This document shows positions 5,187-43,637 of a stretch of 43,637 bases of DNA, piece after piece (the stretch's first letter is position 1; each line of letters begins with the position of its first letter). Where the stretch lies: assembly GCA_008632985.1 (NCBI GenBank), contig QPGO01000237.1, positions 62,001 through 105,637 on the forward strand, written 5' to 3'. The notes beneath the pieces are model-generated. The model made no database searches, had not been told where the DNA came from, and saw nothing but the letters and a program-made list of their open reading frames with translations. Made by a program: the position numbers and the translations under genes. Source of the DNA: Psammoneis japonica (taxonomy: Eukaryota).

Positions 5187-5294
5187 GATCTTGATCCTTT
5201 CTTGTCTCCTCATGTTTTGGTGCTTTGACTCCAAAGTTCTTCAGTCCATCCGAAGTCGAATCTGTTTCTGTGACTCCTCAAGCAAACTGGGGAG

Positions 5295-12086: not shown

Positions 12087-12270
12087 TGAATAAATGCTGA
12101 TGTGCTGTCACGAACACAGGCAGTTTATGCACTGTTGGCGATTGGTCCACTGTCGCTCATTTGGTGGTCCCAGCAGCACAACATCTCACAATTCTAGAAC
12201 CTGTTGATGCTGTTCAACACTCTGTCTTGTCTTGCACCCAATTCTCAGCTGTCATGGCAGCATTTGTTCA
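12087..12270 (+). repeat. Copia B 5' LTR (184 bp)
   Basis: TGAATAAATG...TTTGTTCA, matching 34631-34816. Followed by CTTTGTCAGAGCC, resembling a decayed tRNA-iMet PBS (canonical TGGTATCAGAGC). Confidence 0.9.
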
Positions 12271-12819
12271 CTTTGTCAGAGCCAATGCGCTGTGATGTTC
12301 ATCACCTGGAATGGGCATCACGAACGGCACGACGGTGTCGTTGCGATCGATCGATTTTTGTGGCAAGCGCCATGTTGGTCCCATGGTTGCTCGTGCAATC
12401 GCTGAGTCCTTTGCACATGTCAATGTTCATGGATGTGAATGACATGCTCTTGGAGACCAAAGCTGTGATCCGTCAGACATGACATCAGTGGACGGAATGT
12501 TTGATCCCGTGGATGGAATGTGTTGGCTAAGACACACAAACATTCGTGATGAAGATGACACAATGATTTGTGCACTGAGGTCTGTCATTTGATCACGTGC
12601 ATTTGATTGATCAAAATGCATTGTCAAACTGCTTAGACACTGTGCATGTGGATGCATGCTGTCTGTTGGAAATCACTGCTTGGGAGTGACACCGCCTGCT
12701 CGCGAGTTCGCCAAGTAGAAACCGCTAAATCGGCACGAGAACCACACATTTTTATCACTTTTCTCCACTCACACAAGTGGATGCTCACGCGTTGAAACGT
12801 GAACAACTGCTGACACACC

Positions 12820-15800
12820 ATGGCCGCTGCTGCAGCCTTTGCCGCTTGTCTTGCGCATTGTGGACACAATGCGCAGACGCGCACCTGCACAGCCAGTCAA
12901 GGCTTTGCTGCAATTCAGGACTTGGAACAGGTCCCTTTGGCAGAAATCACCACTGTGACTGAGGGTGTCATGAAGAGCGTGGGCACCGCCGCCAACCCTC
13001 AAGTCCGCTTCCCACACCTGGCGAATCGCAAGTTCAAGGCAATCAACAGCCGACTGCTGCTCTCTTCACTGGTGACGTCATTGGGACATGGACCGCACGT
13101 CTCACAGAATTGGAACAATTCAAGTCAGCGGACTCGGACGACGAATCGGCTGCCAAGACAGCCGTGGAACTCAAGAATCTACATGACTGGCCTGCCTTCC
13201 AAGAGTTGCTGGAGACTGAACTGCACCACCACTGCAGTGCCGTCACTGGTGCACCCCTTGTCTGCCCAGCTGGGGAGCATGAAGATGTCACTGCCGAAAT
13301 GTTTGCTGCCACCTGCTCTGCCATTGATGAAGACCTCATTGCCACTGCCCAACTTGCAGGAGCACAGCGTGCACAGGACAGGCAATGCCTGTATGATCTC
13401 TTGAAGAAGCTGGTGATGGGGGGCCCGGATGGGCTTTTGTCAAACCTTCCAATCGCAATTGCGATGGCTGTGCTGCCTTCTTTGCACTCAAGAGGCAGGC
13501 GGAAGGATCGGCTGCCGCCACCACCCGCAAGAACCATGCCTGTGCACAGATTGCTGCCGGGAAGTGCACCGGATGGGGTCATTTTACTTTTGACCAGTGC
13601 ATTCAACGCCATCAGAAGGCTCACAACGACTTGTCCGAGCTCGATGAACTGGCAGCCAAGACCAAGAAGGTCTCTGACTTTCTCAAGGGCATCTCTGACC
13701 CCAGGTTGGAGACTGGCAAGAGTGCAGTGGATGGTGATCCGACGAAGCTAGCGGATTTTGAAGCATGCCAGCAGTGCATGAAAACTCTGGTGGAGAATGC
13801 TAAGAACCACAATGCTGATGCTTGCGGAATGGCATCCATCCAATGCCGCAACAACCAGCATGGAAAACCTGGCGGCAAGCACCCACCCAAGAAGGATGAG
13901 CCCAGAATCCGGGCAGGCCATTGTCCCATTGAAGAGTGGAATGCTCTCGACGGTCCTGAGCAAGAGCAAGTTCAGAAGCTCCGTGAGGCCAAGAAAGCCG
14001 AGAAGAAATGCAAAGCAGCAGCTGCATCCTTGGAGGCTGAGTCGGTCGATGCCGAAACTCGTGCTGTTAAAAAGGTGGCCATTGCTGAGCCTCAACCTGC
14101 TGATAAACAGAAGGACTCCAAAGAGTCAGAAAAACCGCCTGCTGCCAATGCAGGCATGCAGTTCAGACAAAGTGCCCATGACAAACCTCAGAAGGAGGAA
14201 TGAATGGTTGCGCCAGCACCAAAAGGTGTAGAACCGACTGTTGCCACACCTGCTGGCACCACACATTTATCTGGGCGGTTCTTAAAGGATGCACATCTCT
14301 CTTTGTCATCTGCTGAACATTCAGATGGTGAAGCAACCAATGACCTGGACTCACACCACACTGATGCGTGTGCTGTTGGGTCCAATTTTATCATGTGCTC
14401 TGATGTTGACTGCACTGTTGCAGTGCATCCTCACTCCGAAGAGTGTGCACCAATGATGAATGATCCCATTTGCACAGCTGCTGCCGTGTGGGTTGATCCA
14501 ACTGATGGACAACCATGCCTGCCACTGGTCCATGAGGCTGTGTTTTTTGGGGACAGAATGACTGGCACCCTGCTGTGCCCCAACCAACTGCGAGCAAATG
14601 GACTGACTGTCCACAACACCCCTTGCCAGTTTGATCCCAACAGCACACACTCTGTTGCTTTCCCTGACTCAAAAATCAGGACACCTTTGTGCATGCGAGG
14701 TGTTGCTTCGGTCTTTGACTCACACAAGCTGACTCAGGAGGATCTGGAGAACCTCCCCCGGCTGGAACTCACATCACCCCTTGAATGGGAACCTTCCACT
14801 GATGCCATGGCGCAAAAGGAGGAAGAGTGTGCATGTGCCAGTGTGCGCCAAGGATCAGCGAAGTCTGATGGACAGTCGACAATGATGAATGCGACCAGAT
14901 GTGTCGCTTCAATTCATTCGCATCAGATGTCCCATCACAATGAGAACGTCATTGTGGACACCAATGATGATGATTCTCTGTGTCACCGCTTGCGCACCGC
15001 AAATCCTTGTGTCGGATGGCGCACCAGAAATGGCAGAAGGCCAGACCAAGGACATTTGCAAGGAATGCAGGACACATCAGGAGGTGTCCACCCCACACAG
15101 CCCCTGGCAGAACCCAGCCGAGGCATCCATTCGTGAGTTGAAGAAGAGGGTCCAAGTGACTCTACGCTGGACTGGCACTCACAGGTGACTTTGGTCTTGT
15201 AGTGCCAAATGGGCATGCGACACCCAATGCATGATTGCGGCTGGCATGTCGGATGTGGGAGGATGAGTCCCAGAAGAAGAGGTGACAGGTTCAACACCTG
15301 ACATCTTGTCCCTCTCTCTCTTTGATTGGCACCAACCTGTTCACCATTGCATGCCTGTGGCGGAGTTCCCAAACGAGAAGAAGTGCATTGGCCGTTGGCT
15401 CGGAGTGGCTGACAACTGCACTGACAACATGGCATTCATTGTCCTGCCCGAATCAGGCAGACCCATCATTTGGAAAGATGCATGGGCCATGCCGGAGGAT
15501 GATCTTAAAACTCTGGTGATCCAAACGGATCTTGCATCAGTTGATCAGGCTTTGATCAAACGACTTACCATCCCAGAACAGGGCGCCAATGCTGACTTTC
15601 CTGAACTCCCTGATGACTTCATGGACGAATGGGATGATGCTGTTGAACCCGTGGAACCCAACGCTTCCAAACCAGAGGCTGATGAGCACACCCTGGAGGG
15701 GCTTGACGAATGCCTCACAGCTCAAGTCATGTTACCACGTGGAGGTGAACTGACCCATGCCAGGGTCATTGCACGCAAACGGGACAGTGACGGGGTTCCC

Positions 15801-16582
15801 ATTGGCACTGGGAATGACAACCCTGTCTTAGACTCAAGGACACACGACGTGGAATTCCCTGATGGATCCACTAACTCCTGTGCTGCCAACGTAATTGCAG
15901 AAAATCTATTCGCTCAGATAGACTCTGAAGGCAATGCCCACCAGATCATGAAGGAAACAGTCAATCACCAAACTGATGCCCGTGCCGTAAAGGCTGATGA
16001 CAGGCACATGATGACTAAGACTGGCAGGTGCACTCCCAGGAGGATGACCGCAGGCTGGGACCTGCAAGTTGAATGGAAGGATGGGACTACATCCTGGGTT
16101 CCCCTCAAGGATTTGAAGGAATCTAATCCAGTCGAGGTTGCTGAGCATGCTGTGGCAAACAAGGTAGCTGGTGAACCGGCTTTTAACTGGTGGGTCCGAG
16201 ACGTCTTGCATCGCAGGTCGAGGATCTTGAAGAAAGTCAAGTCGCATCACTGGAAACGTGCTTACAAGTTCAGAATTGAACTCCCGAAATCTGTCAAGCC
16301 ATGGAGACAGACAACAGAACGGGGACTGACTTCTGGTTCAAGGCCATCAAGAAGGAAATGCGCAATGTCATGCCTGCATTTAAATTCCACGATGACGACA
16401 CTGTGCCGGTCAGGCACAAACACATTGAGTGTCATGTGATCTTTGACATCAAAAGCACCCTCCAACGTAAAGCGAGGTTCGTGGCCGGAGGCCATCAGAC
16501 CAATCCACCCAAGGAATTGACCTGTTCCAGCATGGTTTCGCGTGACAGTGTCAGGACAGCATTCACCACAGCAGCTCTCAAC
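12820..16582 (+). pseudogene. Copia B gag-PR-IN-RT(N) remnant
   Basis: Frameshifted ORFs at 12820, 13110, 13631, 14204, 15282 and 16301 carry copia motifs, e.g. WKDGTTSWVPLKDLKESNPVEVAE. The IN N-terminus appears deleted near 15000. Confidence 0.85.
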
Positions 16583-16909
16583 TCAACTCAACACAACGAT
16601 TGCTAGTTGGCACTGGTGCCCTTTGCGGACTTTGGCCCCTGTTGGACCCGACCGGCTGGGGTGCAGAACTCCTTGGAGAAAAGTTCCAGACCGGCATCTA
16701 AGAAATAAAAATAGAAGAAGGGTGTTTCGCGATCGTACTCAACCCAAAGTTGAGGAGCAACACCGTCAGTTGTCCATTTCGTCGAATGACGACAGGTCCC
16801 TGGTAAAGATTGCTACAGTGTCGCCGGTGAAGCCATCGGTTTTCCAGACATGTCAAGCAGGTCCCCGGCACAGCTGATGAAATAGAGAGTCGCCAATCTA
16901 CCACGATTG

Positions 16910-19900
16910 TTAGGAGTCAAAAAGCTCCTGTGCTTGTGCCTCAACCTCCTGTTCCTGAGAAATACGACGACGTTTGGAGGGAGGTCTTACTTCGTCATCG
17001 TAATTGTTTGTCGGATCAAAGTCCCGAATCCTGGGTTGACTGTTGACCCATCTGCGCAGAGCCACTCGTTCATCCTGGAGTTGCACACCGACCCCAAGTT
17101 TGCCGGACAGCCGTTCTCGGGCTGCCACAACATTTGCTAACCAAGAGCGTTTGAAAGATGTGGACTGAGAGAGCAGGGAGACGACGTGACCGCAGAAATG
17201 ACAGGCGAATTCCCCTGGGAGTCCCTCTCGGCCTCGCTGAAAATGGTGGCGAATCCATGAGTCTAGCTCGTCTCTGGCTTGCTCGCTAATTTGAGGATGA
17301 GCGGCAGCATTCCTGTGTTCCCACAACCGTTGCGTTATTCCGATAAGTTGGTAGACCCATCTTCTGACCCATTTAGAACCCGATTTTCTAGAGCCTCGGA
17401 GCCGAAAATGTTCCTGTTGTAAAAGAGCCCACTCCTTCGCTACACAGCCTTCCAGAAGTCTATCTCAGCCAATGACGTATTGTGACTCAACTGCCTGACG
17501 AAGGATTGGGCTAGCATGAGGGTCGAGGCGGACATTGATGTGTTGATGACTACGCCAGGCGGTGAGATGTTCCTGGATGGTGCTCGCTAGGCCAAAAGCC
17601 GCATCGTTGCGATCCACCCAGCGGACATGTTTGCATAAGAGCGACCTCCACTTGTCCGTAGCCTCTGAGCAGGCAACAACGTGCGTAGCATCTTCGTTGT
17701 CAGCATCGCACCGGGGGCATCGCGAATGATCCTGAACCTTCCAGCGTTTCAGCCATTTGCCTGCTCCACACATTCCCACCGCATGTTTAGCCATCCACCG
17801 TCGTTTGCCGATGCCAAGATTCTCAGCGACTGTCTCGATGACGTCCCGATCGATCCTGCGGAAGCCCTCGTTCGTAAAGCGTCGTTTTTGTTCGATCCAG
17901 TGTTTTGCTAGCCGTGTGCCGTGAACATGATGATACAGCCGCTCACCAAGCTTTGTCGAGATCTTGTGTCCTCCGACGAAAACACCCCACATTTCATCTT
18001 TGATGTCAAACTGTCGTGGAAGCCTTTCCTGAGGGTCTAGTCGAGCTTCATGTTGCCATCGTGCTTTAGCTGGGTTGTCCATCTCGATGTTCAATCTTGC
18101 CCATCTGTCGAGTCTTCTGCATCGTAGAGTGTCTTGATGTCCTTTGACCCACCGGAATTTCCACCGTAGTGGGCTCTTGGCGATTTTTTCCTTGACAGCG
18201 CTTAAAATGTCAAAGTCATTGGACGGGGCAGTGACGGGAAGAGTGGGGTCCGACGATTTCCGCAGGGCTTGTTCGCCATCACAGGCGATTTCAATTGCTC
18301 CTTGTTGAACATTGTGATGTAGACAGATGTCTTCAACCGTGAAGACAATGCCGTAGAGACCTGCTGTCTCTGCTCGGCAGGAATTAGCGTCACCAGGGTG
18401 ACCTGGCACAACGTTGGCACCCGTCACTGGGTGAGTTTCTCGTTCCCCTCGGATGGTGAATGCCGATGTTGCAAGATTGTCTTTGGCTGACCCATCACTG
18501 ACCGCAATGGCTGCGCCTGACTCGATGGCATTGGCAACACACAGTCCATCATCATCGACAGTGACTTTGTCATTCGCCCACTGTCGGGCCGGAGGTGGTT
18601 GGCGGAGTCGCTGAAGAAGATTGATTGGACCTGGAGCTTCCTGTCTGGGTCTCGTGCTGGTGGACCCCAAGTGATAAATTCCCCATCTGTCCTTGCCTTT
18701 GCAGCATGCGCGAGCACGTTGAATGTCATCAGGCAGTTTGGTCGGTCCAGACGGAACAAACCGGTGATGATGATTCCTTGTTTGCCTGCAGCTCGACAAC
18801 CTGAACGAGTGCCACAGGTTATTCTGACCCCGTTGACATGGACGCTGTTCCGACGGAGAATGGAACCACTGCCAGTGGGAATCGTTAACTCTAGTGTCGG
18901 GAAGCCAGTTCCCCAAGGATCGGTGTAATCGCCTTGCATGGACATTGGTTGCCCATGTAAAGCAGTGCCTTAGAGCAGTGCGCCACGTCGTCCAATCTGT
19001 AGCCTTCGGACGTTGTTGCGGGGGCCATTCATGTTGTGACCAAAATAAAGGTGTCCTTCTTTCCATTCCACATGTCACAAAGAATTTCACACCCATCGCC
19101 AGTTGAGATGTCAGCAAGTGTTACAACATTCAGGAAGACACGGCACTGATTAAGAGCCTGCAGCTTGGCCCCCTGAAGCCTTCATCTGCAAATCTTTCCA
19201 TGAGAAACACGTCATTCTCACGTGAGAGAGTCAGCGACGGTGTGTCCTTGTTGATGTCGTGGCTGGACAGATGTGTCCACAGATGCTTCACCCATGACTT
19301 GGCAGCCAGGCATCCAAATGTTTGACATGAGCTCGCAAGGAAGGAGCTTCCGACTCCGATTTCCAGCTTGTGTTTCTCCACAAGTGCTCGGAGAAGTTGT
19401 CCCGTGATCGTGTCTGCTTTTCCGTGTTTGACAAATGCCTCGACGTGTTTCCTGTACATGGTGGAGGCAATCGAATCGAATCCGAGGCCTTGCAGTCAGA
19501 TCGGACCGTGTGTGACAGCAAGGGGAAAGGATCTACATAGACCCGATCTCGGAAGGCCTTGTTTGAGAAGCGGTGCTTCGACACATCTGCATTCTTTCGA
19601 CGACAGAGTGAGGGCGAGGAGAGGGCAGTCGAGTGCCTTGCAGACTCTTTGAGTCAGGGCAAGCCACGCATCAGCCTTAGAAAGATGACCTGATCGAGCC
19701 CGATCCGCCCAACCTTCAGCATGTTTCTGGAGTTCTTCCACCGCCGTCCTGCAGTTTCCATCAGGGGCTAACCACACTCCTAGAGTTTTCTTAGCGATGG
19801 AAGGCGAAAGTCATTCAATCAGGTGTCTTGTTCCCTCGGCATCCTCTGTGCACATCTGTGGGTCATCCTGATCATCGGGGTCGCTCTCCTCGTGAACGTA

Positions 19901-21588
19901 CTCCCATCTGCCGTTGGTCCATTTGACCTCGATTAAATGCCACCAGCATTTGTCCGGGCGGGTGTCGCCTCCCGTAACTCTCATGCCGCCTGCAAAGCGG
20001 TCCAGACCTCTCTGAGCTTCTTGAACAACTTCCCAGCCTGGTTGCAAGGGATCGGTGGCTGTGTGAATGATGTCACTGTCGTCGACAAAGGCGAAGCCTG
20101 CAATCCAGAGTTCCTTGTTCGAGATGGCCAAACAGAAGGCTGCCCCGTGTCCCGCAGTTCTCATCATTTCAAGAACAGGAGTGCTGACTACAGCCCAAAT
20201 CTGAGGAGTGTTTCCGTTACCTTGACCGAGTCCTTGCGGAGGCTTGCAATCCAAATCGAAGTTATCCGGGTCAAATGCGATTGCGAAGAGGTCTCCACCA
20301 AACGATTGCTCGGATCGACCATAAATTGTTTTCACCGTGTGTTCCATCTGTTGAAGGGTGGTGAACTCGCAGACAGTTGGTGGTTCTGGAGCTCCTTTGC
20401 TTCGCATTGCCAGTGAGGCACACGAGTGCACAATGAGATCGTAGCATGAACGTAGATCCACAGCAGTGTCCACAGCGTTGATTCTATCCACTCGAATGAG
20501 GTCAAAGATTAGTTGTTTGTTCAGGGCTTGCTCCTCTGCTGAGTGACCCTTCCTGCTGCCGCACTGTTCCCCAGCGATCCAATGCCTTGGTTCAGCGTTC
20601 CTCATCATTTGTCGTCCAAGGATCTTGTTGTTGTTGTTGTTGGCATCAACTTCGAAGCACAGGATGGGCCGCAGAGAGTCCACATGTTCCTGCCCAGTTT
20701 TCTTTGGGATCAGGAGGTCCACACCTTGTCGCCATCGCTTTGGGGAATGACCTGAAATGTGGGGAAAGTTTGCCATGGACGCGTCAAGCTGGGTGAGAGT
20801 GTCATCAAAACGGGCGGCTTTGAAATGAGCGGCACACAACCCCAAAGGGCCGGCGCAGATTTTTTCTTTCACTCTCTTCCAGGACTCCATGCATTCTTCT
20901 GTGGAGATCCACAGTCTCGCACTCACAGTGCAGTCAGACGGGTGATGCAGATGCGACAGGCATTCTCTTGTGCATTGCGTCGCTCCTGGTGGAAATTCAT
21001 ACGATCCATCCAGAATGGCATCGGAGTGGGGGCCAACTCCGAGAAATTGCACATCACCAATGAGAGGCTCCTGCACAAGAGCAGTGTGATGTGTTTGGTG
21101 AAGTCTTGACTCACAGTCTTGAAGCGCTAGAGTTTCCATTTCCTCTTTTTCAGTGACCTCTCGATCAGAGCCGTCTGCTTGTTTCTCGAGGAGGCGTGTG
21201 AGTGGGGATCGGAGAGGTTTGCCGGAGATCCGATTTACTCTGCGATTCTGCTCCCTAGACTCTTCGCGGTTGATGAGTACTCGCAGTTGTGTTTCAGCAT
21301 CGGAGTTGTTGGCTCTGGCTAGCTGATCCGCTCTTTTCTCCAGAAACTTACGTCAGTGGTCAGGAGCATCTTTGGTGATTGCTCGACATTCTTTACAGCG
21401 TTGCGATAGATCTGCCTCTAACTGGACAAGAGTGAGGTTGTGCGCTTCGAAGTCTCTTGATTTTCTTTCCAGATGGTGCATTATCTGAGAACTGATCGTG
21501 AGGCGTTTCCATCAGTGAATTAAAGCGTGGTACAATTCGATGCGTTTGGACGCTCGTTTGAGCTTGGGAGACCAGGACTTGCCTCCCA
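16910..21588 (-). pseudogene. LINE ORF2 C-terminal part: RT, RNase H, Cys/His motif
   Basis: LRPI, GSRKG, DLRSCYD, QGLGQGNG and FVDD (RT). VSDGS...RAE...ACDG...WVKGHQD (RNase H). CPRC...EDATHVVAC. Several stops and frameshifts. Confidence 0.9.
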
Positions 21589-21864
21589 TGATAGAAAATG
21601 AAGGCAAATGGCAAGAATTCAAACAATGACTCCTTACTGCTGTCTAAACAGCAGATGAGTCTCCGCTCAGAGACCGTTGCAGGAGCCGAAAGACGTGTGG
21701 GTCGGTATAATCGGGCTACTGTTATTATTCTTGTGAGCCTTGTGGCTCGAAAGCAAACTACATCGCGCGTGAACGCGCGGAACTAAAGCACACAAAACTG
21801 TGCACGGTAAACTAAACAGCGCGCGATACTTCGCGCGCACCTAAATCCTGTTCAAATCCTGTCA
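21589..21864 (-). repeat. Copia A 3' LTR
   Basis: TGACAGG...TCTATCA on the minus strand. PPT GGGGAG at 21865-21870. Confidence 0.97.
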
Positions 21865-28401: not shown

Positions 28402-28419
28402 TGAGCAAGACTGTTAATC
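28402..28419 (-). promoter_or_regulatory. Putative primer-binding site of copia A, complementary to a tRNA-Asn(GUU)-like anticodon arm
   Basis: Immediately inside the 5' LTR. The + strand reads AGA-CTGTTAA-TC(T). No canonical TGG start. Confidence 0.5.
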
Positions 28420-28695: not shown

Positions 28696-29885
28696 TCCCA
28701 TGCGAAGCTTTCTGCATTTCTTATCGGCGAGCCACACACCTTGAACTCGGAGTTCATCGATTCTCTCCCATTCATCGGTGAGTTTGGGTTGCGGGGGACA
28801 AGCAGCCTGCTTTTCATTTTGAATGCTCCTGCTGGGAAGATTGTGTGTTGGTGCGTGGTCTTTATGGATTTTGTTGAATCTGCTTACCACAACTGGATCA
28901 TCGAGTTTGAGTCTTCGAGCAGGATGCCTTTCGAGTTCCGGAGGAAGAGCACCAAAAGCAGTCTGAAACGAGATGTCGATCCAAGCCATGCTGTGATCGG
29001 ATCCTGTGATGCCATCACCAAAGGGCAGAAACCCGCCTTGTTTGATTGTCACACCTGCCGTGGCCCATGTGCCGTCTATGGGGACAGAGCCTGGGTTCCG
29101 TGTTGCTGGAATTGTGTCTTCTCCGCAGCATTTAGTCAAAAGATTTCTAAGTTGCACAGCTGAGAAGGCATCTTTGATCTCAGTTGACTGAGTGTCTTTG
29201 TTCACGTTGCCTGACAGAATGATTTGATCTCCGTCAGCGAGCCATTTGATGACCTCCTCGGTCAGGTCCTCAAGCCAGGCTGCACGGGGGCATCCATCAT
29301 CATCGTGGTCGTTGAAGCACCTTTTGTGTTGGGAGCAAACCGTCCCAGCGCCTTTGCGACTTGCGCAAGGCCGGCACTCTGTGACAATCCAAAGGGTCGC
29401 ACCTGCTTTGCCACGGAATTGGAGCCAGGACCACCTACCCAGACCGGAAGGATCCGTGCCTCTTGCGATCACTCTGTGTCCTGCTTGTTCGATTGCCATC
29501 AGCATTGTACCGCCTGGTTGATAGAAAGAAGAGTGTAGATCGTGGACATTGCAGGCTGCCGAGATGGACGGAGGATGTTCCCAGCACCCTCGGAATCTTT
29601 CCCTCGGTCGTTCGGAGTGTGGGACGGTTCTCCAGCATCTTCCTGTTTCGTTCATGCATGGGACGTCGATGCATTTTTCTTGGACTGTACGGTGTGTGCT
29701 TTGGTTTTTTTGATCTTTGTCATCCAGCGGAAAGCTGTTAATGTTCTGAAATGCAATCCGCAGGGTAGTCTCAGGTTTTTCATTGGTGCAAGCAGCGCCG
29801 CATGTCTTGTTGTTTGATGGTTTTGTGGTAGATTCATTGTCTGATCTCTCTTGTTCGGGACCGTGTTTTCTTTTTCTATTTCCAT
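28696..29885 (-). pseudogene. LINE ORF2 N-terminal part: apurinic endonuclease-like domain
   Basis: RIAFQNINSF, QPGGT, DPSGLGRWSW, GSVPIDG and SDH motifs. Frameshift near 29780. Confidence 0.85.
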
Positions 29886-29958
29886 TGTGGGCCGCCTCTC
29901 TTCGTCAATGACCACGTGGCCGCCCGCCGTGATCCTTCTCTTGATGTGCTGCTCGGAC

Positions 29959-32900: not shown

Positions 32901-32992
32901 TTGTCGGGAGAACTTACGTCGGTTTGAGAGGCTGCTTTCTTGTAGGGTGAAGAGGCACCCTTACGTTTGGTGCCGTTTTGTTTGTTGGCCAT
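29959..32992 (-). pseudogene. LINE ORF1 (~1000 codons, frameshifted near 32300-32420)
   Basis: ATG ~94 bp inside the element's 5' end. ORFs 32408..33016 and 29959..32277 lie directly upstream of ORF2. No domain recognised. Confidence 0.75.
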
Positions 32993-33103
32993 GGTTGATT
33001 TTGGTTGCTGAGTCACGTAGATGCTGGCACTGAGTTTGTGTGGACTTTCCGGGTTACTTTAGATGCTGATGTGCGCTGGAAAAGTGCCACAGCAGCTCTC
33101 AAC

Positions 33104-34480
33104 CACCTGGAGGTCCTGAGTGCGCCAACATTCAGAATGCCTGCTTGAACGCACACACTGAGGAGAAGTGTCACACCACTGCTGGCCTGGAATTTGGGAA
33201 GCATGATGAAGGAAGGCCGGCAATTGTTGTCCAAGCCTTGTGTGGTCTCAAATGTTCAGGTGCAAGATTTAGGGAGCACATGGCGGCTGCTGTGCGTGAC
33301 ACTGGGTTTGAGTCTTGTAAGACTGACCCGCACGTTTGGATGCAAGCTGCGGTTAAGCTGGATGGCTTCAAGCACTGGGAATGTGTGCTTGTTTACGTGG
33401 ACGACTTGCTGTGCATCTCACATGAACCTCAAAAGATCATGGATTGTGTGAGCTCTAGGTGCACACTCAAGGACGGAAGTGTCTGCGAGCCGGAAGAGTG
33501 CTCAGGCGCCCAGATCAGAAAGTGCCAGTTGTCTGACTTGGACGGCAAGACACGCTGGGCTATGTCCTCTGACCTTTTTGTCAAACGGGCATTAGCTGAT
33601 GTTGAATTAGAGCTTAAGAAAACTGACAGGCATCTTCCGATGAAGGCGTCGACGCCCTTGAGCTCGGGACACAGGCCTGAACTGGACAGCTCACCTGAGT
33701 TGAATGCCAAAACGGCCAACTGTCATCAAGGCCTCATTGGTGTGCTCCGATGGGTGGTTGAACTAGGGTGAGTGGACATTTTTGTCGCTGTCTTGCTCAT
33801 GTCCTCCTGCTCAGTGGCACCATGAGTTGGACCCCTGGACGAGGTGCTCCCCATCTTCGCATGCTTGAAGGCCCACTCTAAGTCTGTGCCAGTGTTCAAT
33901 GACACTGAGCTTGTCTTTGATGAAAGTCGTTTTACCAAGTGCAATTGGGAAGAATGTCATCCTGGCACAGCTGAACCGATGCCACCAAACATGCCGGAAG
34001 CACGTGGGAATGGCATGACCACTGCTTGCTTTGTTGATGCTGATCACGCCGGATGCCGTGTGACGTGCAGGTCCCACACTGGGATCCTGACATTCATTCA
34101 ACGAGCGCCCATCTTGTGCCACTCTAAACAGCAGAACACTGTAGAGTCCTCTACTTTTGGGTTGGAGTTCGTGGCGATGAAGACCGCAGTGGAGCAAATT
34201 GAAGCTTTGCGTTGCAAGCTTCGAATGCTTGGAATCCCCATGGATGGGGCCACTGATGTCTTCTGTGACAATGAAGCTGTCTTCAAGAACTCAACTAAAC
34301 CAGAGTCCACTTTGAAGAAGAAGCACAATGCGATTGCCTTTCACAGGACTTGTGAGGCACAAGCCGCTGGAACAGTGCGCATTGCTTGAGAAGATGGATG
34401 CACGAATCTGGTGGATGCACTAACTGGGTTGTTGCCTGGACCGAAGCTCCGGGCAATTATAAGTCATGTCTTGTGGTGAG
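33104..34480 (+). pseudogene. Copia B RT(C)-RNase H remnant
   Basis: Continues AALN|HLEVLS..IQNACLNA across the LINE TSD. VLVYVDD, RPELDSSPEL, KKKHNAIAFH. Confidence 0.9.
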
Positions 34481-34630
34481 TCCCAAAAGGGGACAACCCA
34501 GATGGGTTTGCTGCGCAGGTGCGGCTTTTCCCACCCCCAACATGAAAACACTGCCCTGGAATGGGGCAGCATCAGGTTGCATTTGTCTGTCGATCTGGCC
34601 CAAGCGGAGCCAGTGTCAGTTCCAGGGGAC

Positions 34631-34816
34631 TGAATAAATGCTGATGTGCTGTCACGAATGTGTGGGCAGTTTATGCACCATTGGCGATTGGTCCACTGTC
34701 ACTCATTTGGTGGTCCCAGCAGTGCAACATCTCACAATTCTAGAACCTGTTGATGCTGTTCAACATTCCGTCTTGTCTTACACCCAATTCTCAGCTGTCA
34801 TGGTGGTGTTTGTTCA
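34631..34816 (+). repeat. Copia B 3' LTR (186 bp)
   Basis: Preceded by PPT-like AGGGGAC. Matches 12087-12270 and is followed by CATC. Confidence 0.9.
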
Positions 34817-34839
34817 CATCTGTGCAGGAATGACACCAC

Positions 34840-37800
34840 CACTGAGCCCCAAGAACACACACACACTGGGAGAATTGTGACCACAGCAAGAGTGGGTGCA
34901 CTGTTCTTCCAGTGAATGGTGCAGTGGTGCATCGTTGCCACTGCCTGAAATGCATGAAGGGTGATGATGGCCACTCAGCATGTCCAAATGTCAGAAGAAA
35001 AGTGGCTGAGCAACATTCTTGGCAAGAGTGTCACTGCAGTTGGCAAAGGTGACAATGTGGTCCAAACAAACAGGATCATGTTCAATCCAACCCTGAAGTG
35101 CAAAATGTCGGGTGTCGACATGTCTAGTGTGGCGGGCAGGTTGGCTGGCACTTGCCATCACAAGGGAAGCATTGTTGCCTTTGCATGTGAAAGCAGGCCT
35201 CATTTGTGGAACTGACAATTCATCTGGAACAGAGTGGAAGCAGAGTGCCATCTCACCAGCACCTGATGCTGCAATGAATTCTGCACCTGGGAGCCGGTGG
35301 ATGCCATCAATTGCGCGTGAGTCTTCCAGGCAACAGCAGCACCAGTGAGGAGAAATGTGGCTCCAGCAATGGAGCAACAATGATTTGTGTTGGCTGGGGA
35401 GGCAGTGGAGCACAGTCACTGGAACTGTTGCAGGGGGGGAATGGCACAAAAGGTTGCACTGGGTTGTTGATGCCAGCAGCATGTGTCAAGCCAAAGTCAG
35501 GGCAGTGCTTCAGATGTCTTGGAGCAGTTTTTGTGCTGTCACAGTGCAAGGAATCCAGGGTTGGATCCAAGCCAGCTCAGTTTGGTGACCGAGAAACTGA
35601 GGTTGATGCGGGTGGCAACCACAGCCCAGATCAACTTGCCAACAGCATTCCTGTGCAAAAAACCACACTGCCATTATGAACTTTTGGAGATGGCAGCAGC
35701 AGCTGGAGCAGGGGCCTCATCAAGGGACTTCATGTGTGAGGCATTAACAGGCATGGGGACAAAAGGAGCAGGCACATGGGCATCATCTGTTTTGGTGAGG
35801 AATGGACAGTTTGCAAGCATCCATTTCATGCAGGAAGTGCCATGGAGATGAAGGCATTCTTTGGGCTGTTTGATGTCATGCCCAAAAAAAGAGTCAGGAA
35901 GCCCTGGCATTTGACCTCACTGCCAATGAGGTTCTTGTCCATGATTTCAAAAATGCAGTGGTGTGTCTTGTCCAAGTGGGCTGCAACAACAGATTGCTGA
36001 CTTGACAGAAGATCAGCACTTCCTTGCTGTTTGTGATGCACTGAAGATGCAGGTTCATGGGCAGTGGGTGTCAAGTGAAGCTTGTCTGGAGTGATCTTGC
36101 ACACATGAACATTCCAAAGATGTGGGGATTCAGGTTGTCCTTGGAGAGCTCACAGCACAGGGAGAGACAGCCTTTTGGGATGGGTGGATGACCAAGGTGT
36201 TTTGTCCACCAATTCTGGAGGACTTTGCCAACCCACATGCAAAACCACTGTTTCATGGGAGGAGCTTGCATCTGTGCCATGTGCTCATTTGTTCTTGAGA
36301 GCTGCGATGAGAGCAAGAACATTCTTGTGTGCTGGGTTGTTCAACTGATGCAGCACAAGTCTGGGCAGGTGTCTGAACAAAACCAACCCTGACTGTGGGG
36401 CTGTCACCACAGATGCCCTGAGCCTTCTTCATGCCATCAAGATCATTTTTGATGAGATGTGGACTGTGCCCATGGGAAAATGGAAGTGTTGGGTGGCACG
36501 GGTGTCAGTTTGCCGAACATGCCTTGGCCATGGCACATTTAAGTTGTCCAAACTTGCTTGCTTCCCAGTCATCCTGATCATCTTGTGTGGTGAGTTTCTG
36601 TCACATGAGCTTGTGCATGGTGAGAAGAGTGAGATCATGCATGGATTCAAGCTGATGGTGCATGTGGTCAATCTGGTCCAGAAACAGTTGTGGGAGTGCA
36701 GCAGCATCCAAAGTTGGTGAGACATTGTCATGGGCAAAATGCAGAATGATGTCTGGGGATGTGCTGGGTGGATGTCTGCCATTGCTTTGTGTCCAACACA
36801 GCAAAGTCGTGAATTGGGAGGGAATTGACTGACATTGGACATGCCCATTTTAGTCCAGAATGCCACCATGGCACATGTGCAGCTCGTGAGCCAGGAAGGC
36901 AAAATGACAGAAATGCAAACAATGTTTGCAGAGGCTGCAATCAAACTCAAAACCACAACATGGTTTGCGTGCGCCAGTGCTGAGGAGAGGAACATCAAAT
37001 GAATCCTTGCAGGGATTGAATGACACAGCCACAGCAGCCACAGAGTCAGAGGTCATTGGATCCTTGGGGGCAAATGCCACAGCAGCTGCCTGGTGCTCTT
37101 CAGGAGGGACAATTGCCATCTCACTGAGGGGAAAGTTTTGCAAGAGACTTGTCTGGGGGGGAGGGGGCAGGGACAAAGGTTTCTTGGCTGCAAGGGTGGG
37201 CACAGAATGGGTGTGGCATCTGCTGCAGAGGTGTGGGAGGGGTTGCAACCTGCTGAATGCCCAGATCAAAGAGCAATTGTGGACCTTGGGGTCTGGCAGG
37301 TTGGGTGAAGTGTGCCTCATCATGCACTGCATGAGGAGCGGTCTTCTCATGGCCAGCAGTGGCATTGACATGTCAAACATTGCCATCGGCAGTGGCACAG
37401 CCAAGTGACATGACATGGAGTGTGTGTTCATCTAACTTGGCAGCGGGTTTGCCTGGGTGATGAGCACACATGCATGAACCAAAGGCAAGAGAATGGGACA
37501 AATGGGGTGCTGTGCCTGTCCACACTTGATGCAAGGTCATGTCAACAGCAGAGTGCCACAGGCAGTTCTTCAGGTGCACCACGTGAGTGAGAGCATCCAC
37601 CCAGCAGGTCAAATGTCATCATGTTCAAAATCTCCACTCTGCCATTTTGCCATGCAGCATCAGAGCCAGCAGGTTCTACCTCACAATCATGCTTGAGACA
37701 GATCTTCCAAAATTCTTCAGAGTGAGCAAGTTCTCCATCTTGATCTGCCTGAACAGCATGCAAGCCATCATTGCATTTATGTCTGGCAAGAAATGGATCA

Positions 37801-38480
37801 ACCAACCAGCCTGACAGGAGGGCATTTGCCAGGGGGAGTGCAAAAAACCCATGCATGCCATGTCTTGACATCCACAACACCAACAGGTGTGAATTGCAGC
37901 CATCTCGGGATTGTGTGATGCACTTGATGCCATCCCTTTTCTGTTTGAGTTTGATGTGGGGTTTCACATCCATCCCAGATGTGTGCACAAAGCTCAAGGT
38001 CCTGTCTCTGTCAGCATGGAGGCACCCAAAACTAAGAAGGAGAAGGACCTCAAAAAGCAACCAGGTGGCCAAAACATCAAGGCCCACTGTTCTTTAGCTT
38101 TCTGCCACAAGGTGGCAGGTTCTGATGCTGTTGCCCCGGGCACTCTTTTCTGATGCTCTTGAAGAGTCCAGTGAGGCCAAACATGCTTGCAGTGTCTCTG
38201 AACTCATTGCTTTGGCTGTCAACAGCAGGAAAATGATGAACATCTTAGACCAAGTTGTTGCTCTTCATGCAGCTTTTCTGAACAAGGCTTTTGCTGACAG
38301 TGTTTCTCATTTCAAATTCTCAAACCAGCCTCTGAACACCTTGGCATCTGCCCATTCATCCATTGTCAACATTCTCAACATTTTGACTCAGCACATGGAC
38401 ACTTCAGAGCATTCCCAAATTGTTGCTGAAGGGCAGGAGATCTCTTCACACTCTGTTACAAAAAATGCAGATGTGGTGCC
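34840..38480 (-). mobile_element. Copia C: highly decayed Ty1/copia (IN-RT-RH)
   Basis: RHTRHVDTRHFALQGW (RH end) and ADQDGEL...AAWQNGRVE (IN core). Boundaries approximate. Confidence 0.7.
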
Positions 38481-41400
38481 ATGGCTCATGCCACAACACT
38501 CTTGCCCTTGTGTTGTTGGTGCATCATCAACACATGTGTCTGCATGAAGACCCACAAAGATTGTGACCCACTGCTTGTGCCAGTGGCAAGGTGTCGAACA
38601 AATGCTGATTTGGTGTCACGACTCACATTGCAACACTCTTGCCCTTTGGTTGTTGCCATGCTCGTGTCCACGCTGCAACTCCCATGCGATTGGACATTAC
38701 AACCCAAATGCACATCCACAGCTGTTCTCCCAATGCCAGCAATGACTCCACATGCTGACCAAATGCAGACCACTCCATCCAGATTTGCTCGGTCCCCGCA
38801 AGTTGGTGACACTTTGCCAGTTCGTCCAATCAAAACATCCTCTCATGGAGAGATGAAACACATGCCCAATTTGCCACCAGCTGGTCTGGCTTGGGAGGTT
38901 GCAAGGCATGAGTGCCATTTACAAACCCTGGACCTTGGCCACAAGGGACCACCACTGCCAAAACAGAAATGAACACAATTGCCAATGCTTTTCACCTGTC
39001 ACAAGCTTCATCAACAGATCCACCAAATTTGTCTCCGTGTCTCCCTTTCCAACTTTCACAATTCCAGCTGTGCAACTGCCTCTCTCACTGTGTGTGAAAA
39101 TTGACTGCATTGTGCTTCTTGTGTCAATGTGGATTCTGGAAAACTGACATTCTTCACCACACCACGGTTGTCACAAAACACATTTGCCAGTCTTTCCAAC
39201 AGCACTCCAGACATGTGCAACTTGCAACACAAGGCAACAGTCACATCCTTGTAAATGTGCATCGTGACCAATTCACTGCCAAATGTGGAGAACCAAGCTG
39301 CATTCTGCCACTCACTGAACCACATGATTGGAGAATTGTTCATGAAGACAACAGTGCCGGAGTGTGACCTGCGCATGACAACATTTTGGCAATGATTCAC
39401 ATCAACAAAAGCACGCATGGTCACCAGGTTCCCACATGGCTTGGGCACCCCAGGTGGCAATTCCTCTTGACCAATCTGTGGCAGTGTTGAACACAGACTC
39501 ATCAATCTTGAGGTCCTTGGGATCAAATCCACCTCTTCCCCTGCTTGGATGCTTCTTCATGCATGCAAGTGCATGGCACAAGGCTTCCAAATGACCCTTT
39601 TTTGGATTTCCCTGATGTTGAGATGATGGGAACACTTCAAACAAAATGTCAATGTGACCCAACTTGATTGCTCATCTGGCAATGCCAACAAGCTGCAGGT
39701 GTCTGGACATCAACTTGGAACCCAACTCGTCCATCCCATCTAATTCTGGTCAGCACTTTGCCAGGAATGGATCCTTCACATTGTTCTTCAAAACTTCACA
39801 ATCTCCATCCTCACTTGGCAAATCCTCCACCATCTTAGCCGGTGCCGGCTTAGCTGGCAAAGGAGTGATGGCACTTTAAACACAGATCTGGTTTTTTTTT
39901 TAATCACATTCTTGATGCAGTCTTTTGGCAAACTGGCCCAAATCACATGACCGTCCTGTGTCTGCATCTTCTCTGTCATCACTCCCAGACAAGTCTTGGG
40001 CTCAGCACATTCACTCTCAGGCTTGAACTTGTGATGCTCAGCAACAGACTCAACAACTGACTTGCTTTCTTGATGCAACACTGTCAACGCATCATCCGCG
40101 TGGACCAACAGCATCTCATGGCACTCGTGTCTGTCCTCACCAACTGCTGCTCACAGGTGTGCATCGGGGTCCACATGCATTGGCTCAAAACCCATGTCTT
40201 GCAAAGCAGAAGAAAATGCCAATTGCCATGAAAACCCTGCACTCTTCAATCCACAAAGTGCTCTCACCACAACCAATGTGCACCCTTTGAACTTGCCACA
40301 TCAAGCTCCACCTTTGAACCACATCTTCTTTGCGCATGGTGCATTCAAACAGGCATTCTCCAAGTTGATGGCAGTGACACATCCACACTGTTCAAAGCTG
40401 CCAGCATGAAAGCAATCTGCACACTTTCCCTTGAAACAATGCTTGAGCACACAACTGAATCTGGTGCCTTTGCAGTGTGACCTCTAGCCACAAACCTGGC
40501 CTTGCAGGTAAAATCCATCTTGACATCAAATGCCATGTGGTGCTGCACATCCACACAGCTTCTGACTCTTTCCTTCATGGACTTGTTGTAGAGTTTTGCC
40601 ATCATGCTTTTCCCACAACACTTTGGCTCAGTCATTTCCTTGTCAATTGCTCTGGCCCAGCAGTCTGCCCTCCATCTCATGATCAATTTGCAGTGCTTCA
40701 TCAACACTCTTTGGCAACTTAACCCCAAACTTGTGTGCAGTCTGCCAACACTTCGACTTGACCAACACAATTCAGCTCCGCTTCCTCAACACATGAGGTG
40801 CCCACCAGGCAAATGCTGGTTCATCCACAATCCAGTTTGCAACTGCACACTCGGCCACTTCTGTTGGGTTGGAATCTTTTGATGTCCTTCAACTTGACCC
40901 AGTTGGAGCTGCCATCCTTCCATGCCACCAGTGACCACTCTCAGCCTTTCATCATCATTTTCTTCTTGCTCTGGCCTCCTGCAGTCTCAGCCATGCTGTC
41001 ATCCTTTGAAATCACATCTTGAGTCTTCCTGTGATCTTGAACTTCATGGAGGACAGAGAACTGATGACCCTTTTTGTCGACCTGAGCAAACATGTTCTCA
41101 GCTGTGACATTTGCAGTGTGCTCATCTGTTGTCCCATCCACATGCTCAAGTTCACACTCCCTGGTGTCAAATGATGGGTTTCAATGGACAGGTTCTGATG
41201 CCTCCTCCTTCCTGTTGGCTTGCCACAGTGACCTCTCACTCTTTTTGTAACTGCACCACATCTTCTGCCTTCTGTTCCAATGTCTGGGACTAACTCAACA
41301 CCAAGGTGCTGATCTGTGGCTTCTTTGTCATCATCATCATCAGGTTGCACATCATCCAATGGCATGTGACCATGCTCCTCATCATCTGGCACCATTCTCT

Positions 41401-43110
41401 TCCTTGATGCTGTGCTCCATTGTCCCCGTCAACCACATGGTCATCCAAACAGAATGCTGGCACCGCCTTGTCTCCTTCAAGTGTAAAGTTCATGTCATTC
41501 AACCATTTTGTCAAGGCTTTGTTGAACTCATCAATCTGTTTCCTCTTGTCCAACCAAACATGGTCGGCTTGCACAACATGCTCCACTGAGGTCTTGAACA
41601 CCAACTTGCCACTCTTGGTCACAATCTAGTGGCACATGTCCAATCCAACCTTTTGTAAGGACATTCCAAGCCACCTTCCAAGTCACATGGGATCTCAAGT
41701 TGCACTTGGTTTCAAATCCAGTCTGTCCCACCACCAAACTGGGATGCAGAATCCAAAATCCAGGTCCAATCTCTGGCATTTGTCCTGTCACTTTTTCATG
41801 TCCAGTTCTGTGGTCTTGATCTCATGCCATTCTTGACAACAATTCTGCTTCATGCACAAGACCAAAATCCCACAATCGCTTTGGAACCCTCTTCTTGGTC
41901 ATTCGCAATTTCCATCACTTGGCCAAGAAACCTGTCTCCTGTTTTGCTGCATGGTTCCATCTGGTTCTTCCTGCCTTGCTCCAAATTTCTGAGTTGCACA
42001 AGCACTCGCATCGCATGTTTCACAAAATCTGCATTCTGGCCAGTAAATTCTCCTGCTCCATCTGTCAACAAGAACTTGGGTGTTCCAATGTCATCCAAAA
42101 ACTCTCAACTGATGATCACCCTGCCTCTGACCAAGCCATCATTGGGGTCACCTTTACAAACTTTCTTGCCTGAGTGTAAATGTCAACACAAGTGTCACCC
42201 AGCATGGACTTGACCTTTGAGATTAGAGTGTCAGCAAACCACATTCCTTTCAGTCTCTTCTGATGCAAATCCAAATGGTCCATGCGAACAACACATCTTG
42301 ACAATGGTTGTGTCAACCTCCCAACACCTTGCTGAGTCACAATGTTGAGAGCATCCTTTGCCACATCCAGGCCAACATTCCACTTCCTTGCTGGCTCTTC
42401 TGCCACAATGTCAGAGGGTCAATCCTTTGTCTGGAGTTCCAACACCCTGTGCTCTGGCTTGTCAACATCCTCTCTGCAGGTGCACGCGATCTTTGCAAAT
42501 GCAATCATGCGGTCACAAAAGGTTTGGAAGTGATGATTTGGGGACATGCTTGCCACATTCTCCTTGGCTTTTCCCCATTGAACTGCCCCAGACTTTTCCC
42601 ACTCTGCTTTCATTTCCGATGTCTCTGACTTTTGCATGTGGGATGTCAATCATTGGATGGCTTGCATCTCCTGTTGTTCTCTGGTCTCATTCGGGAAACC
42701 CATGTTGACCTCCAATGAATTCCAAGTGTTGCCTGTGAGCAAGACAACTGGCAAATGCTGCTCCTCCCATTCTGCAAGTGCACCAGACTCGAAAGACACA
42801 ACTGTCCCTGTGGTGTGAAAAGGGACAAAAGCTTCTTCCATTGAAATGCCACAGATGTCTTGAGGATCACAGCAATTGTCATTCACTGAGACATTGCATG
42901 CTTGCAACTGATTTGGATTGACAAGGGAATGTTCCATTTGCTGTTCCAACCACAACATTTGGTCACCAACCAACAAGTGCTTGATGCTCACATCTGGATC
43001 TGTCCAAATGGTGCATCATTGCACAATGGAAACTTGTTTAACTGGGTCATGTGATTCAAGAAATGGACTTGCTTCACACACTTTGTTGGTGCACCCACCT
43101 GCATGGGCAC
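38480..43110 (-). mobile_element. Copia D: highly decayed CoDi-type copia (PR-IN-RT-RH, probable 3' LTR from 38837)
   Basis: RKWNVGLD...TQQG and TDGAGE (IN), FDVKMDFTCKARFVA and LVHADD (RT), FCDNRGVV and TNLVDLL (RH). PPT-like GAGAGGA then TG at 38837. Boundaries approximate. Confidence 0.8.
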
Positions 43111-43637
43111 CACATTCATTGTGGAACACATGACTGGGGGACCACGTCATTCGAGATTGGCACTGCATTCACCAACCAAACCCATCTCTTGGAGGTCACC
43201 CCAATCCTTTGGAAACTTCTTGTGACATTGTTTGGGTGGGGTTTAGATGGCACAAGCAGCAACAGCAGAGACAATGCAATCACATTTGTGTGGTGTGCAA
43301 ACAAAGCTGAAGCGCAGCCATCACCCCAAACTGTCAAGAAGGTGCACAAGCACCATGACCAAAGTCTGCTGCCAATGAACAGGCAACCAGTGCAGCATTG
43401 TTGCAACAAGCACCGCGTGTTCATAGCTGGGTGCACATGAGCTGCCACTGTTCTTTGGAACATTGATTGATGCTTGGTGGATGACTCTCACAATCTCCTC
43501 ACAGTTTGTGAGGTTGCGGGCTTCTCATTTCTCACATTTGTCATGCATTGACATTGTCATCTGTTTGCAACAAGGTGTCAGCTTGCATTGACTGGCATCA
43601 GCACATTCTCATTTACAACCAAGCAATAGCCCAGTGC

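Follow-up and report, generated by a model that had tools for sequence, protein, structure and literature searches.

For decades, repeat-induced point mutation (RIP), known from fungi only, had to our knowledge no counterpart among genome defences that mutate mobile DNA. In ascomycetes it acts through dinucleotide-specific transitions on both strands of repeated or mobile DNA and leaves a diagnostic dinucleotide index, features that it shares with the footprint described here from the diatom Psammoneis japonica. The footprint lies in a window of 43,637 nucleotides (assembly GCA_008632985.1, contig QPGO01000237.1, positions 62,001 to 105,637 of the forward strand), about half of which is transposon wreckage and in which copia and long interspersed nuclear element (LINE) retrotransposons have lost TpA to TpG and CpA, the work of what is very probably a real mutational process. 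Its direction is opposite to that of RIP, which converts CpA to TpA, with a gain of TpA, lower GC content and stop codons, whereas here TpA is destroyed, GC content is raised and stops do not arise.

Other known processes overlap with this footprint in part. The decay of 5-methylcytosine (5mC) at CpG has the same products, TpG and CpA, it too advances with age, and the older elements of the window show it (CpG observed/expected ratio (O/E) 0.14-0.52), but it can neither remove TpA nor convert TAY codons (Y, pyrimidine; R, purine) to Cys or His. APOBEC3 and ADAR are similarly deaminase-type systems of hypermutation that leave edited retroelement copies in the genome, but their substrates are cDNA or RNA and their changes fall on one strand (G to A, or sense A to G), whereas here both strands are affected equally and the damage grows after insertion. 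The natural target of TadA and ADAT2 is the adenine at position 34, which follows an invariant U33, the TadA site being U-A-C. This site would fit the T-A-Y half-site suggested by the window, making these enzymes, with which we group the TadA-derived adenine base editors for comparison, candidates only, as activity on chromosomal DNA in algae is unproven.

The closest described system comes from the alga Bigelowiella natans, in which the DNA of integrated giant viruses and virophages undergoes hypermutation at TpA (Mettrop et al., bioRxiv April 2026, 10.64898/2026.01.13.699255). In mutation-accumulation lines of this alga, two integrated viral regions gained 231 mutations, 230 of them A to G or T to C and all of these at TpA, at a rate raised approximately 1000-fold and in only some of the lines. 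Elsewhere in the B. natans genome there are clusters poor in TpA and rich in CpA and TpG, and TpA-poor coding sequences in which reverse-transcriptase and DDE domains are over-represented. The agent proposed was an ADAT2-like deaminase, and the Discussion of the preprint also mentions that ADAR prefers a 5' U, that is, UA. An earlier note on the present window, made from its letters alone, had been aware of no description of such a process, a claim that is overtaken by this de novo report; our own literature search returned no description for diatoms, and the Bigelowiella preprint alone as a description of the process.

The two systems are alike in that the changes are A to G or T to C at TpA only, with TpG and CpA as products, and leave a long-term footprint of clusters with TpA loss and CpA and TpG gain. 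In B. natans the changes are localised to foreign DNA, the rest of the genome being ordinary. In the window, retroelements are depleted beside an SLC10 gene with a TpA O/E of 0.72, but a WD40-like remnant and a flank outside an LTR are depleted too, and parts of the youngest family are spared. They differ in host (a chlorarachniophyte, thus a rhizarian, versus a diatom, a stramenopile), in target (copia and LINE elements here) and in depth, as depletion reaches 0.06 in the window compared with 0.45 in the viral region of B. natans. In addition, the window has CpG decay, a preference for RTAY and a sparing of long terminal repeats (LTRs) and leader, while the available preprint text contains no mention of CpG, flanking context, diatoms or retrotransposons. 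Finally, the rate was measured in B. natans, whereas the diatom offers a fossil record only.

Between positions 12087 and 43637 of the window, TpA occurs 421 times against 1832.8 expected (O/E 0.23), with CpG at 0.60, CpA at 1.55 and TpG at 1.47. Depletion is deepest in the last 8.8 kb (34818-43637), where 38 TpA remain of 584.9 expected (0.06), CpG is at 0.14, and CpA and TpG have risen to 1.91 and 1.86. In contrast, the SLC10 gene (9480-11273), which serves as an internal control, contains 86 TpA against 119.4 expected (0.72; CpG 0.91). The earlier note's observation that TpA is scarce in the old elements and ordinary in this gene is thus borne out, and the plot of TpA and CpG along the window that it had proposed places 58 of 85 bins of 500 bp below a TpA O/E of 0.3, the window as a whole being at 0.27. 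The gene and the nested elements were delimited with Pfam, tblastn with fetched homologues, self-BLAST and target-site duplications, and are as follows (the earlier note gave the name copia A to the stop-free element at 21589-28694, minus strand, here called the young copia; our copia A is the element at 12087-34817).

9480-11273, plus strand: SLC10/SBF transporter gene with short introns (Pfam SBF, E 1.3e-11 and 2.6e-8)
11700-12086, strand not assigned: TpA-poor flank outside the copia A LTR (5 TpA versus 24.5 expected; O/E 0.20)
12087-34817, plus strand: copia A, the outermost element of the nest, with an LTR pair and coding remnants
12087-12271 and 34631-34817: LTRs of copia A, 90% identical to each other
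14465-16581 and 33121-34632: coding remnants of copia A
16582-33082, minus strand: LINE within copia A, with a 17-bp target-site duplication, interrupted by the young copia
16582-21588 and 28695-33082, minus strand: the LINE's own sequence (weak Pfam RVT_1 match)
21589-28694, minus strand: young copia inside the LINE, with a perfect 5-bp target-site duplication, TCCCA (RVT_2, E 6.9e-29)
21589-21869 and 28414-28694, minus strand: LTRs of the young copia, with 6 differences over 281 positions
27481-28413, minus strand: leader of the young copia (TpA O/E 1.07)
21812-27480, minus strand: open reading frame (ORF) of the young copia, one stop-free frame of 1926 codons spanning the assembly gap
24854-25202: assembly gap of 349 N inside the young copia
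34818-43637, strand not assigned: oldest tract (TpA O/E 0.06, CpG 0.14)
38955-40930, minus strand: copia reverse transcriptase/RNase H remnant within the oldest tract
37376-37615, minus strand: weak retroviral SH3-like match within the oldest tract

The scarcity extends beyond the interval 12087-43637 to which the earlier note had referred it, into 1-1500, 2769-5186, 5571-9200 and 11700-12086 (O/E 0.14-0.23). It is not shared by related elements: 80 related copia loci from metagenomes had TpA O/E values of 0.51-0.99 (median 0.72, none below 0.51), and 1-kb windows combining TpA below 0.3 with a mean CpA/TpG above 1.4 numbered 81 of 166 here versus 0 of 1530 in the related loci. As these relatives are ordinary in TpA, the scarcity belongs to the elements of this genome and not to the copia lineage. 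The letters themselves are reproduced by contigs from a public sequencing run, which match the TpA-free tracts exactly over 0.9-4.2 kb (for example, 4222 bases at 34788-39009 with 0 differences); this check against read data, also proposed in the earlier note, used a run that is possibly the assembly's own data and thus not independent of it.

At the protein level, the loss of TpA is visible as the replacement of conserved Tyr by Cys or His. Conserved columns were defined by at least 60% agreement among at least 15 homologues for the copias, drawn from a set of 120 relatives, or at least 30 for the LINE, drawn from 150 independent homologues. The young copia had kept Tyr in 25 of 44 columns, whereas other residues were kept in 670 of 729 (Fisher p=2.7e-9), and the 19 lost Tyr had become Cys (TGY; 8), His (CAY; 7), Phe (3) or Trp (1). 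The same excess was found in copia A (Tyr kept 2/32, other residues 229/502; p=3.4e-6), the copia remnant at 38955-40930 (0/15 versus 118/278; p=5.6e-4) and the LINE (2/7 versus 226/286; p=0.007), so that two classes of element with different modes of replication both bear the signature. None of 92 columns over the four elements (0 of 36 in the young copia) had changed the other way, from His or Cys to Tyr. All peptides quoted in the earlier note are present in the window (VHADD lies at 40091-40105, minus strand), and its reading of Tyr positions as repeatedly Cys or His in copia and LINE proteins holds far above chance in these four tests. Relatives, in contrast, keep their Tyr: pooled over 29 Tyr columns, the 120 homologues had 3025 Y, 19 C and 55 H among 3405 cells, where the young copia had 18 Y, 4 C and 4 H. 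Together with the TpA O/E of 0.51-0.99 in related loci, this means that the signature is not a trait of the transposable element (TE) lineage.

One of the 120 copia relatives, P0086, a protein on a metagenome contig of 46,825 bases, was the only one to show a Tyr to Cys/His pattern of its own, with 10 Y, 6 C and 6 H in the 29 Tyr columns. Tyr makes up 1.7% of its residues (3.2-4.4% in three other relatives) and Cys 2.2%; its identity reaches 56% at most with the young copia and 25-33% with the older copias of the window. Its source may be a second carrier genome, which hints at further carriers.

Direction was also assessed at the DNA level. At ten coding sites, from a sample in which 40 of 1652 variable places were seen, the window copy was compared with the depth-weighted majority of its family, with the proteins of the 120 relatives serving as the outgroup. 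The TpA-type differences, four in number, were all changes from TA to TG or CA, two in the window copy and two in the family majority, and all three CpG-type differences were losses of CpG; the comparison with genomic copies proposed in the earlier note, run in part, is thus forward at every TpA-type site. Across the family, variation by letter totalled 383 for A>G, 367 for T>C, 313 for G>A and 291 for C>T, with 26-48 for each transversion. The family majority encodes Cys (TGT, TGC) at the minus-strand codons 23001 and 25272, where the window copy retains Tyr; relatives have Tyr in 111 of 120 at 23001 and are mixed at 25272 (Phe 22, Tyr 15). Because the window copy and the family majority each have TpA losses of their own, different copies bear different hits. 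Most family copies seem to descend from templates that were already damaged, which suggests mobilisation in trans.

Over the four elements, Tyr to Cys and Tyr to His changes stood at 21:19 (8:7, 6:7, 4:4 and 3:1). As Tyr to Cys reflects A to G and Tyr to His reflects T to C on the sense strand, near-equal numbers, together with the joint rise of CpA and TpG, indicate that both strands are struck, which excludes a fossil of sense-strand RNA editing as well as a lone deaminase acting on one strand of cDNA. With 21:19, no reverse change in 92 columns and four of four polarised sites forward, the earlier note's central proposal of an A:T to G:C process at TpA on both strands is upheld. The process is specific to TpA. 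ApA and TpT had O/E values of 0.93-1.2 in ORFs and decayed tracts (the short LTRs being the exception), and A/G differences in LTR comparisons numbered 7-9 after T, 6-7 after C and 0-1 after A or G (1 after A). Since such differences mostly do not follow A, and ApA and TpT are ordinary, the target is neither the WA motif (W, A or T) nor all A:T pairs, and the earlier suggestion of Pol-eta-type error-prone repair finds no support (1 after A versus 7-9 after T). The earlier note's further expectation that TE proteins would be damaged without stop codons agrees with the stop-free ORF of the young copia.

Three known processes were considered and rejected. Fungal RIP is at odds with a TpA O/E of 0.06-0.39, a CpA O/E of 1.3-1.9, 0 of 92 His or Cys to Tyr changes and a young ORF free of stops. 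The decay of 5mC at CpG as sole cause is at odds with the young copia, in which TpA has been lost and CpG has not, and with Tyr codons containing no CpG. A fossil of ADAR-type RNA editing (sense A to G only) is at odds with 19 Tyr to His against 21 Tyr to Cys. The composition and the Tyr columns thus confirm that the process runs opposite to RIP and is distinct from CpG decay, as the earlier note had held.

Relative ages were taken from nesting order, as established by target-site duplications and independent of composition. Along this order TpA and CpG O/E both fall, from 0.35-0.39 and 0.92-0.98 in the young copia ORF, through 0.20-0.30 and 0.75-0.80 in the LINE and 0.15-0.23 and 0.48-0.52 in copia A, to 0.06 and 0.14 in the outer old tract. 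In the young copia, 51 of 53 Arg columns were intact (2 of 53 had become His or Gln) compared with 15 of 44 Tyr codons altered, and since TpA loss is here far ahead of CpG loss, two processes are at work and not one clock. Comparisons within and between elements are consistent with changes at the same step. For example, 4 of the 6 differences between the young copia LTRs are TA versus TG or CA, while the copia A LTR pair contains 6 double differences of CA versus TG, the final outcome when a pyrimidine-purine step decays along separate routes in the two LTRs. Further comparisons come from a non-autonomous relative of the young copia, which lies with other TpA-poor DNA on the far side of the SLC10 gene.

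1-1500, strand not assigned: TpA-poor tract of unassigned origin (TpA O/E 0.17; without Pfam match)
About 1600-5571, plus strand: non-autonomous relative of the young copia (leader, 805-aa ORF and 3' LTR)
1976-2953, plus strand: leader of this relative, ordinary in TpA, with 84% identity to 27282-28247
2769-5186, plus strand: 805-aa ORF of this relative, TpA-poor (O/E 0.23), without Pfam match
3586-4593, plus strand: 24-unit tandem array of 42 bp (14 aa), making up most of the 805-aa ORF
5290-5571, plus strand: 3' LTR of this relative (TpA O/E 0.40)
5572-9200, minus strand: TpA-poor tract (TpA O/E 0.14, CpG 0.38) containing a WD40-like ORF
8009-8566, minus strand: decayed WD40-like ORF (Pfam WD40, E 6.4e-5; Atlas 0.97, with WD40 in 10/10 best hits)

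The 3' LTR of this relative has TG or CA at 6 sites where both young LTRs have TA, the converse was never seen, and it contains 7 TpA compared with 14 and 17 in the young LTRs. In the tandem array, transitions per base numbered 31/96 at TpA (0.32), 10/96 at CpG (0.10) and 32/816 elsewhere (0.03-0.04), and one TA site appeared as CA in 8 units, TG in 8 and TA in 3-4; the units are not independent, and these figures are illustrative only.

The surviving TpA steps also point to a flank preference. Counts of RTAY, RTAR, YTAY and YTAR were 72, 74, 70 and 42 in ordinary DNA of the window; the corresponding counts for the old tracts were 1, 19, 16 and 32, and those for copia A 1, 14, 19 and 27. Among the Tyr codons of the young copia, changes to His affected 6 of 18 after a purine versus 1 of 26 after a pyrimidine (p=0.013), while Tyr to Cys changes, for which the 3' neighbour is always a pyrimidine, showed no dependence on the preceding base. 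As a lead, this could be read as a half-site 5'-T-A-Y-3' with an edited A, or equally as R-T-A with an edited T; TpA being palindromic, sequence cannot tell which of the two bases is altered.

We consider it probable that these observations reflect a TpA-directed process on integrated retrotransposon DNA in this diatom. In this explanation, TpA would be converted to TpG or CpA by an A:T to G:C transition that affects one or the other base pair of this palindromic dinucleotide, the substrate would be the DNA of integrated retrotransposons with both strands treated alike, and the process would begin soon after insertion and continue until TpA is nearly gone, sparing the adjoining expressed host gene. 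It would run several-fold faster than, and separately from, the later decay of CpG to TpG and CpA in the same elements, and would work best at R-T-A-Y and worst at Y-T-A-R, the edited base perhaps being the A of 5'-T-A-Y-3'. The spectrum, its direction, strand symmetry, dependence on residence time and local confinement are observed in the window, and that the process acts on integrated DNA is likely. The agent would most plausibly be an enzyme, as was proposed for the signature in B. natans, and a TadA/ADAT2-type adenine deaminase acting on DNA is the leading candidate, one that we put forward tentatively. Targeting may follow silenced chromatin. A role in defence, in which TE proteins would be ruined through Tyr to Cys or His replacement without stop codons, is about evenly balanced in our judgement. 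The occurrence of the same spectrum in DNA without an RNA stage in B. natans counts in favour of this explanation.

Several observations weigh against a uniform process of this kind. In the youngest family, the LTRs (TpA O/E 0.77-0.86) and the 0.9-kb leader (1.07) adjoin an ORF at 0.35-0.39, with a step near the start codon, a sparing that is unexpected from a uniform process at the level of DNA. The leader copies of the two elements, 16% apart, differ at 127 sites, 56 of them transversions, with differences at 13/57 TpA and 16/55 CpG, a mild excess and no more at these two steps. TpA in the silent phases of the young ORF stands at 10.9 and 14.8 per 1000 codons, compared with medians of 37.5 and 68.3 in relatives, while the Tyr phase stands at 24.7 versus 38.7, and since the silent phases are more depleted than the Tyr phase, some of the loss passed through selection while the lineage was active and is older than this copy. 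The most depleted tract is single-copy today. LTR 28414-28694 carries TA at three positions at which TG or CA is common to the other two LTRs; parsimony reads these as reverse changes, whereas we take them, tentatively, as parallel losses in the other LTRs. The ratio of RCAR plus YTGY to RTGR plus YCAY was 0.87-1.20 in TEs and 1.32 in ordinary DNA and does not discriminate. Finally, polarised DNA sites are few and the 40 of 1652 places seen give no family-wide context spectrum, copy number was covered for 21900-41899, and the whole analysis concerns one 43.6-kb window.

These points also bear on the earlier description of the process as restricted to repeats, which is not supported. Word depth in the run contigs over the young copia (21900-28569) was about 38,000-162,000 compared with approximately 35 for single-copy DNA, so this family must form a sizeable share of the genome; it is the most abundant, at a typical depth of about 90,000-160,000, with depth at its highest in the LTRs and leader, the leader being the deepest part of the whole element. 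The LTRs and leader are nevertheless the parts that are spared, a further difference from RIP, as the most repeated segment is here the least affected. The non-autonomous relative similarly has a leader ordinary in TpA, and an LTR with half its TpA lost. Conversely, depleted DNA includes the WD40-like remnant and approximately 390 bases outside the copia A LTR, so that any confinement to mobile DNA would have departures on both sides, and the deeply depleted 35240-38574 is single-copy at 80% likeness. The sparing could possibly reflect chromatin-defined targeting that leaves promoter-like parts alone, the persistence of cis-acting parts that stayed intact in copies mobilised in trans, or some editing during reverse transcription. 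The shared leader (27481-28413, minus strand, and 1976-2953) is also poor in CpA (0.72) and has many CTAC words, CTAC/GTAG having an O/E of 1.72 in the ordinary set.

The last of these possibilities, taken as a full explanation, would couple editing to retrotransposition, with a deaminase acting on UA or TA in genomic RNA and single-stranded cDNA within the particle, so that copies arrive mutated in the manner of APOBEC3 targets, and with LTRs and leader protected by their structure or by having the shortest single-stranded phase. This would account for the limitation of depletion to the ORF, with LTRs and leader left ordinary, in the youngest family and its non-autonomous relative, for a silent phase more depleted than the Tyr phase, as expected of edits spread over many cycles under selection, and for the family-majority Cys at codons 23001 and 25272, which implies that damaged templates were copied; moreover, every recognisable depleted element of the window is a retroelement. 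We nevertheless think it unlikely, as two substrates would be needed for the 21:19 symmetry and no 5'-to-3' gradient runs along the ORF. Depletion also deepens with nesting to 0.06, old LTRs included, for which one round would hardly be enough and which a functional lineage could not carry. Most differences within the LTR pair of one element fall at TpA, the flank outside the LTR and the WD40-like remnant are depleted too, and the same spectrum occurs in integrated DNA viruses of B. natans. Slightly less likely still is a by-product of chromatin state in place of a dedicated system, in which a modified or damaged base at TpA in silent DNA miscodes during replication or repair to give T to C, for example an oxidised or hydroxymethylated T made by TET/JBP, as an analogue of 5mC decay. 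The T-A-Y half-site reads equally well as R-T-A, TpA and CpG losses occur in the same elements and both grow with age, and 5-hydroxymethyluracil in dinoflagellates is reported preferentially at TpA. However, we know of no TpA-type thymine modification in diatoms, TpA loss outruns CpG loss in the young copia (15/44 Tyr versus 2/53 Arg), and the on/off behaviour between B. natans lines suggests a regulated activity.

The remaining explanations appear very improbable. Selection or inherited composition, through UpA avoidance, codon usage or a TpA-poor copia lineage, would agree with TpA being mildly low in most coding DNA (the relatives' median is 0.72), with the restriction of young-family depletion to the ORF and with silent sites being the most depleted. 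It does not account for conserved Tyr becoming Cys or His in 15/44 codons compared with 74/3405 cells in relatives, for non-coding and decayed DNA down to 0.06 where no relative falls below 0.51, or for LTR-LTR and tandem-array differences concentrated at TpA. A generic bias of heterochromatin, whether from Pol-eta errors at WA or from GC-biased gene conversion between repeats, is just as improbable: the A:T to G:C direction fits, and repeats are natural substrates for conversion, but ApA and TpT at 0.93-1.2 and A/G differences that follow T or C, with 0-1 after A or G, speak against it. An artefact of assembly or sequencing, which a gap of 349 N within a very high-copy element might invite, is the least credible of all, as the run contigs, which may derive from those same data, agree with the TpA-free tracts base for base over 0.9-4.2 kb, and the pattern follows element boundaries, codon logic and nesting order. 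The interpretation offered in the earlier note therefore survives in its core, the TpA process, and is not supported in its repeat restriction, its appeal to Pol-eta and its claim to novelty.

The remaining features of the window are as follows. Proteins of Fragilaria, Cyclophora and Helicotheca share 78-81% identity with an SLC10 exon, those of Nitzschia and others less, and the best named relative of the copia is a Nitzschia protein; on these grounds B. natans, considered as a possible host, was rejected in favour of a diatom. The WD40-like ORF at 8009-8566, just upstream of SLC10, may be a hypermutated copy of a host gene or a captured fragment; a homologue search with it gave one weak generic match and nothing more. 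An 800-aa ORF at 29962-32361, by position the 5' part of the LINE, had no usable Atlas match (best 0.81). Within the TpA-poor tract 1-1500, a 132-bp tandem repeat occupies 310-800 in 3-4 copies with 78-84% matches. AT skew falls to -0.30 over the LINE 5' part (29000-33000), and GC skew turns from +0.17 to -0.26 near 38000 (within 34000-43000); both probably follow element orientation. The window contains 56 stop-free stretches of at least 150 aa in several frames, most of them without a Pfam match, and a Pfam search of 266 six-frame ORFs of at least 70 aa gave no match at E<=0.01 in most TpA-poor tracts. Long open frames persist in the decayed elements because TAA and TAG are nearly absent.

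This persistence carries a warning for annotation, as TAA and TAG vanish and long frames are kept while the proteins are dead and escape profile searches, so that gene callers would be misled. The window adds a second lineage to a process first reported in 2026 in one chlorarachniophyte, and the RTAY preference and the sparing of LTRs and leader in the youngest family are new relative to the available part of that report. A near-saturated footprint in a diatom means that the process is not one alga's curiosity and that the main class of eukaryotic mobile DNA is among its targets. The process would be able to remodel a large share of a genome, and its scar may be the sign of a widespread means of disabling invading DNA. 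The combination of TpA loss with CpA and TpG gain and Tyr to Cys/His replacement provides a simple index for surveying other genomes, and T-A-Y a candidate motif in the search for an enzyme that would be a natural DNA adenine editor, in a group of which several species can be genetically engineered. It is conceivable, though we hold it doubtful, that TpA-directed chromosomal editing is an old defence arm shared across the stramenopiles, alveolates and rhizarians (SAR), present in rhizarians and diatoms and perhaps beyond, in which a TadA/ADAT2-derived DNA adenine deaminase with a T-A-Y half-site acts in bursts against newly silenced insertions, its reach set by chromatin, while TE lineages purge silent TpA. 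If so, this chromatin-set reach would ruin the coding bodies of mobile elements and leave their promoters and leaders untouched.

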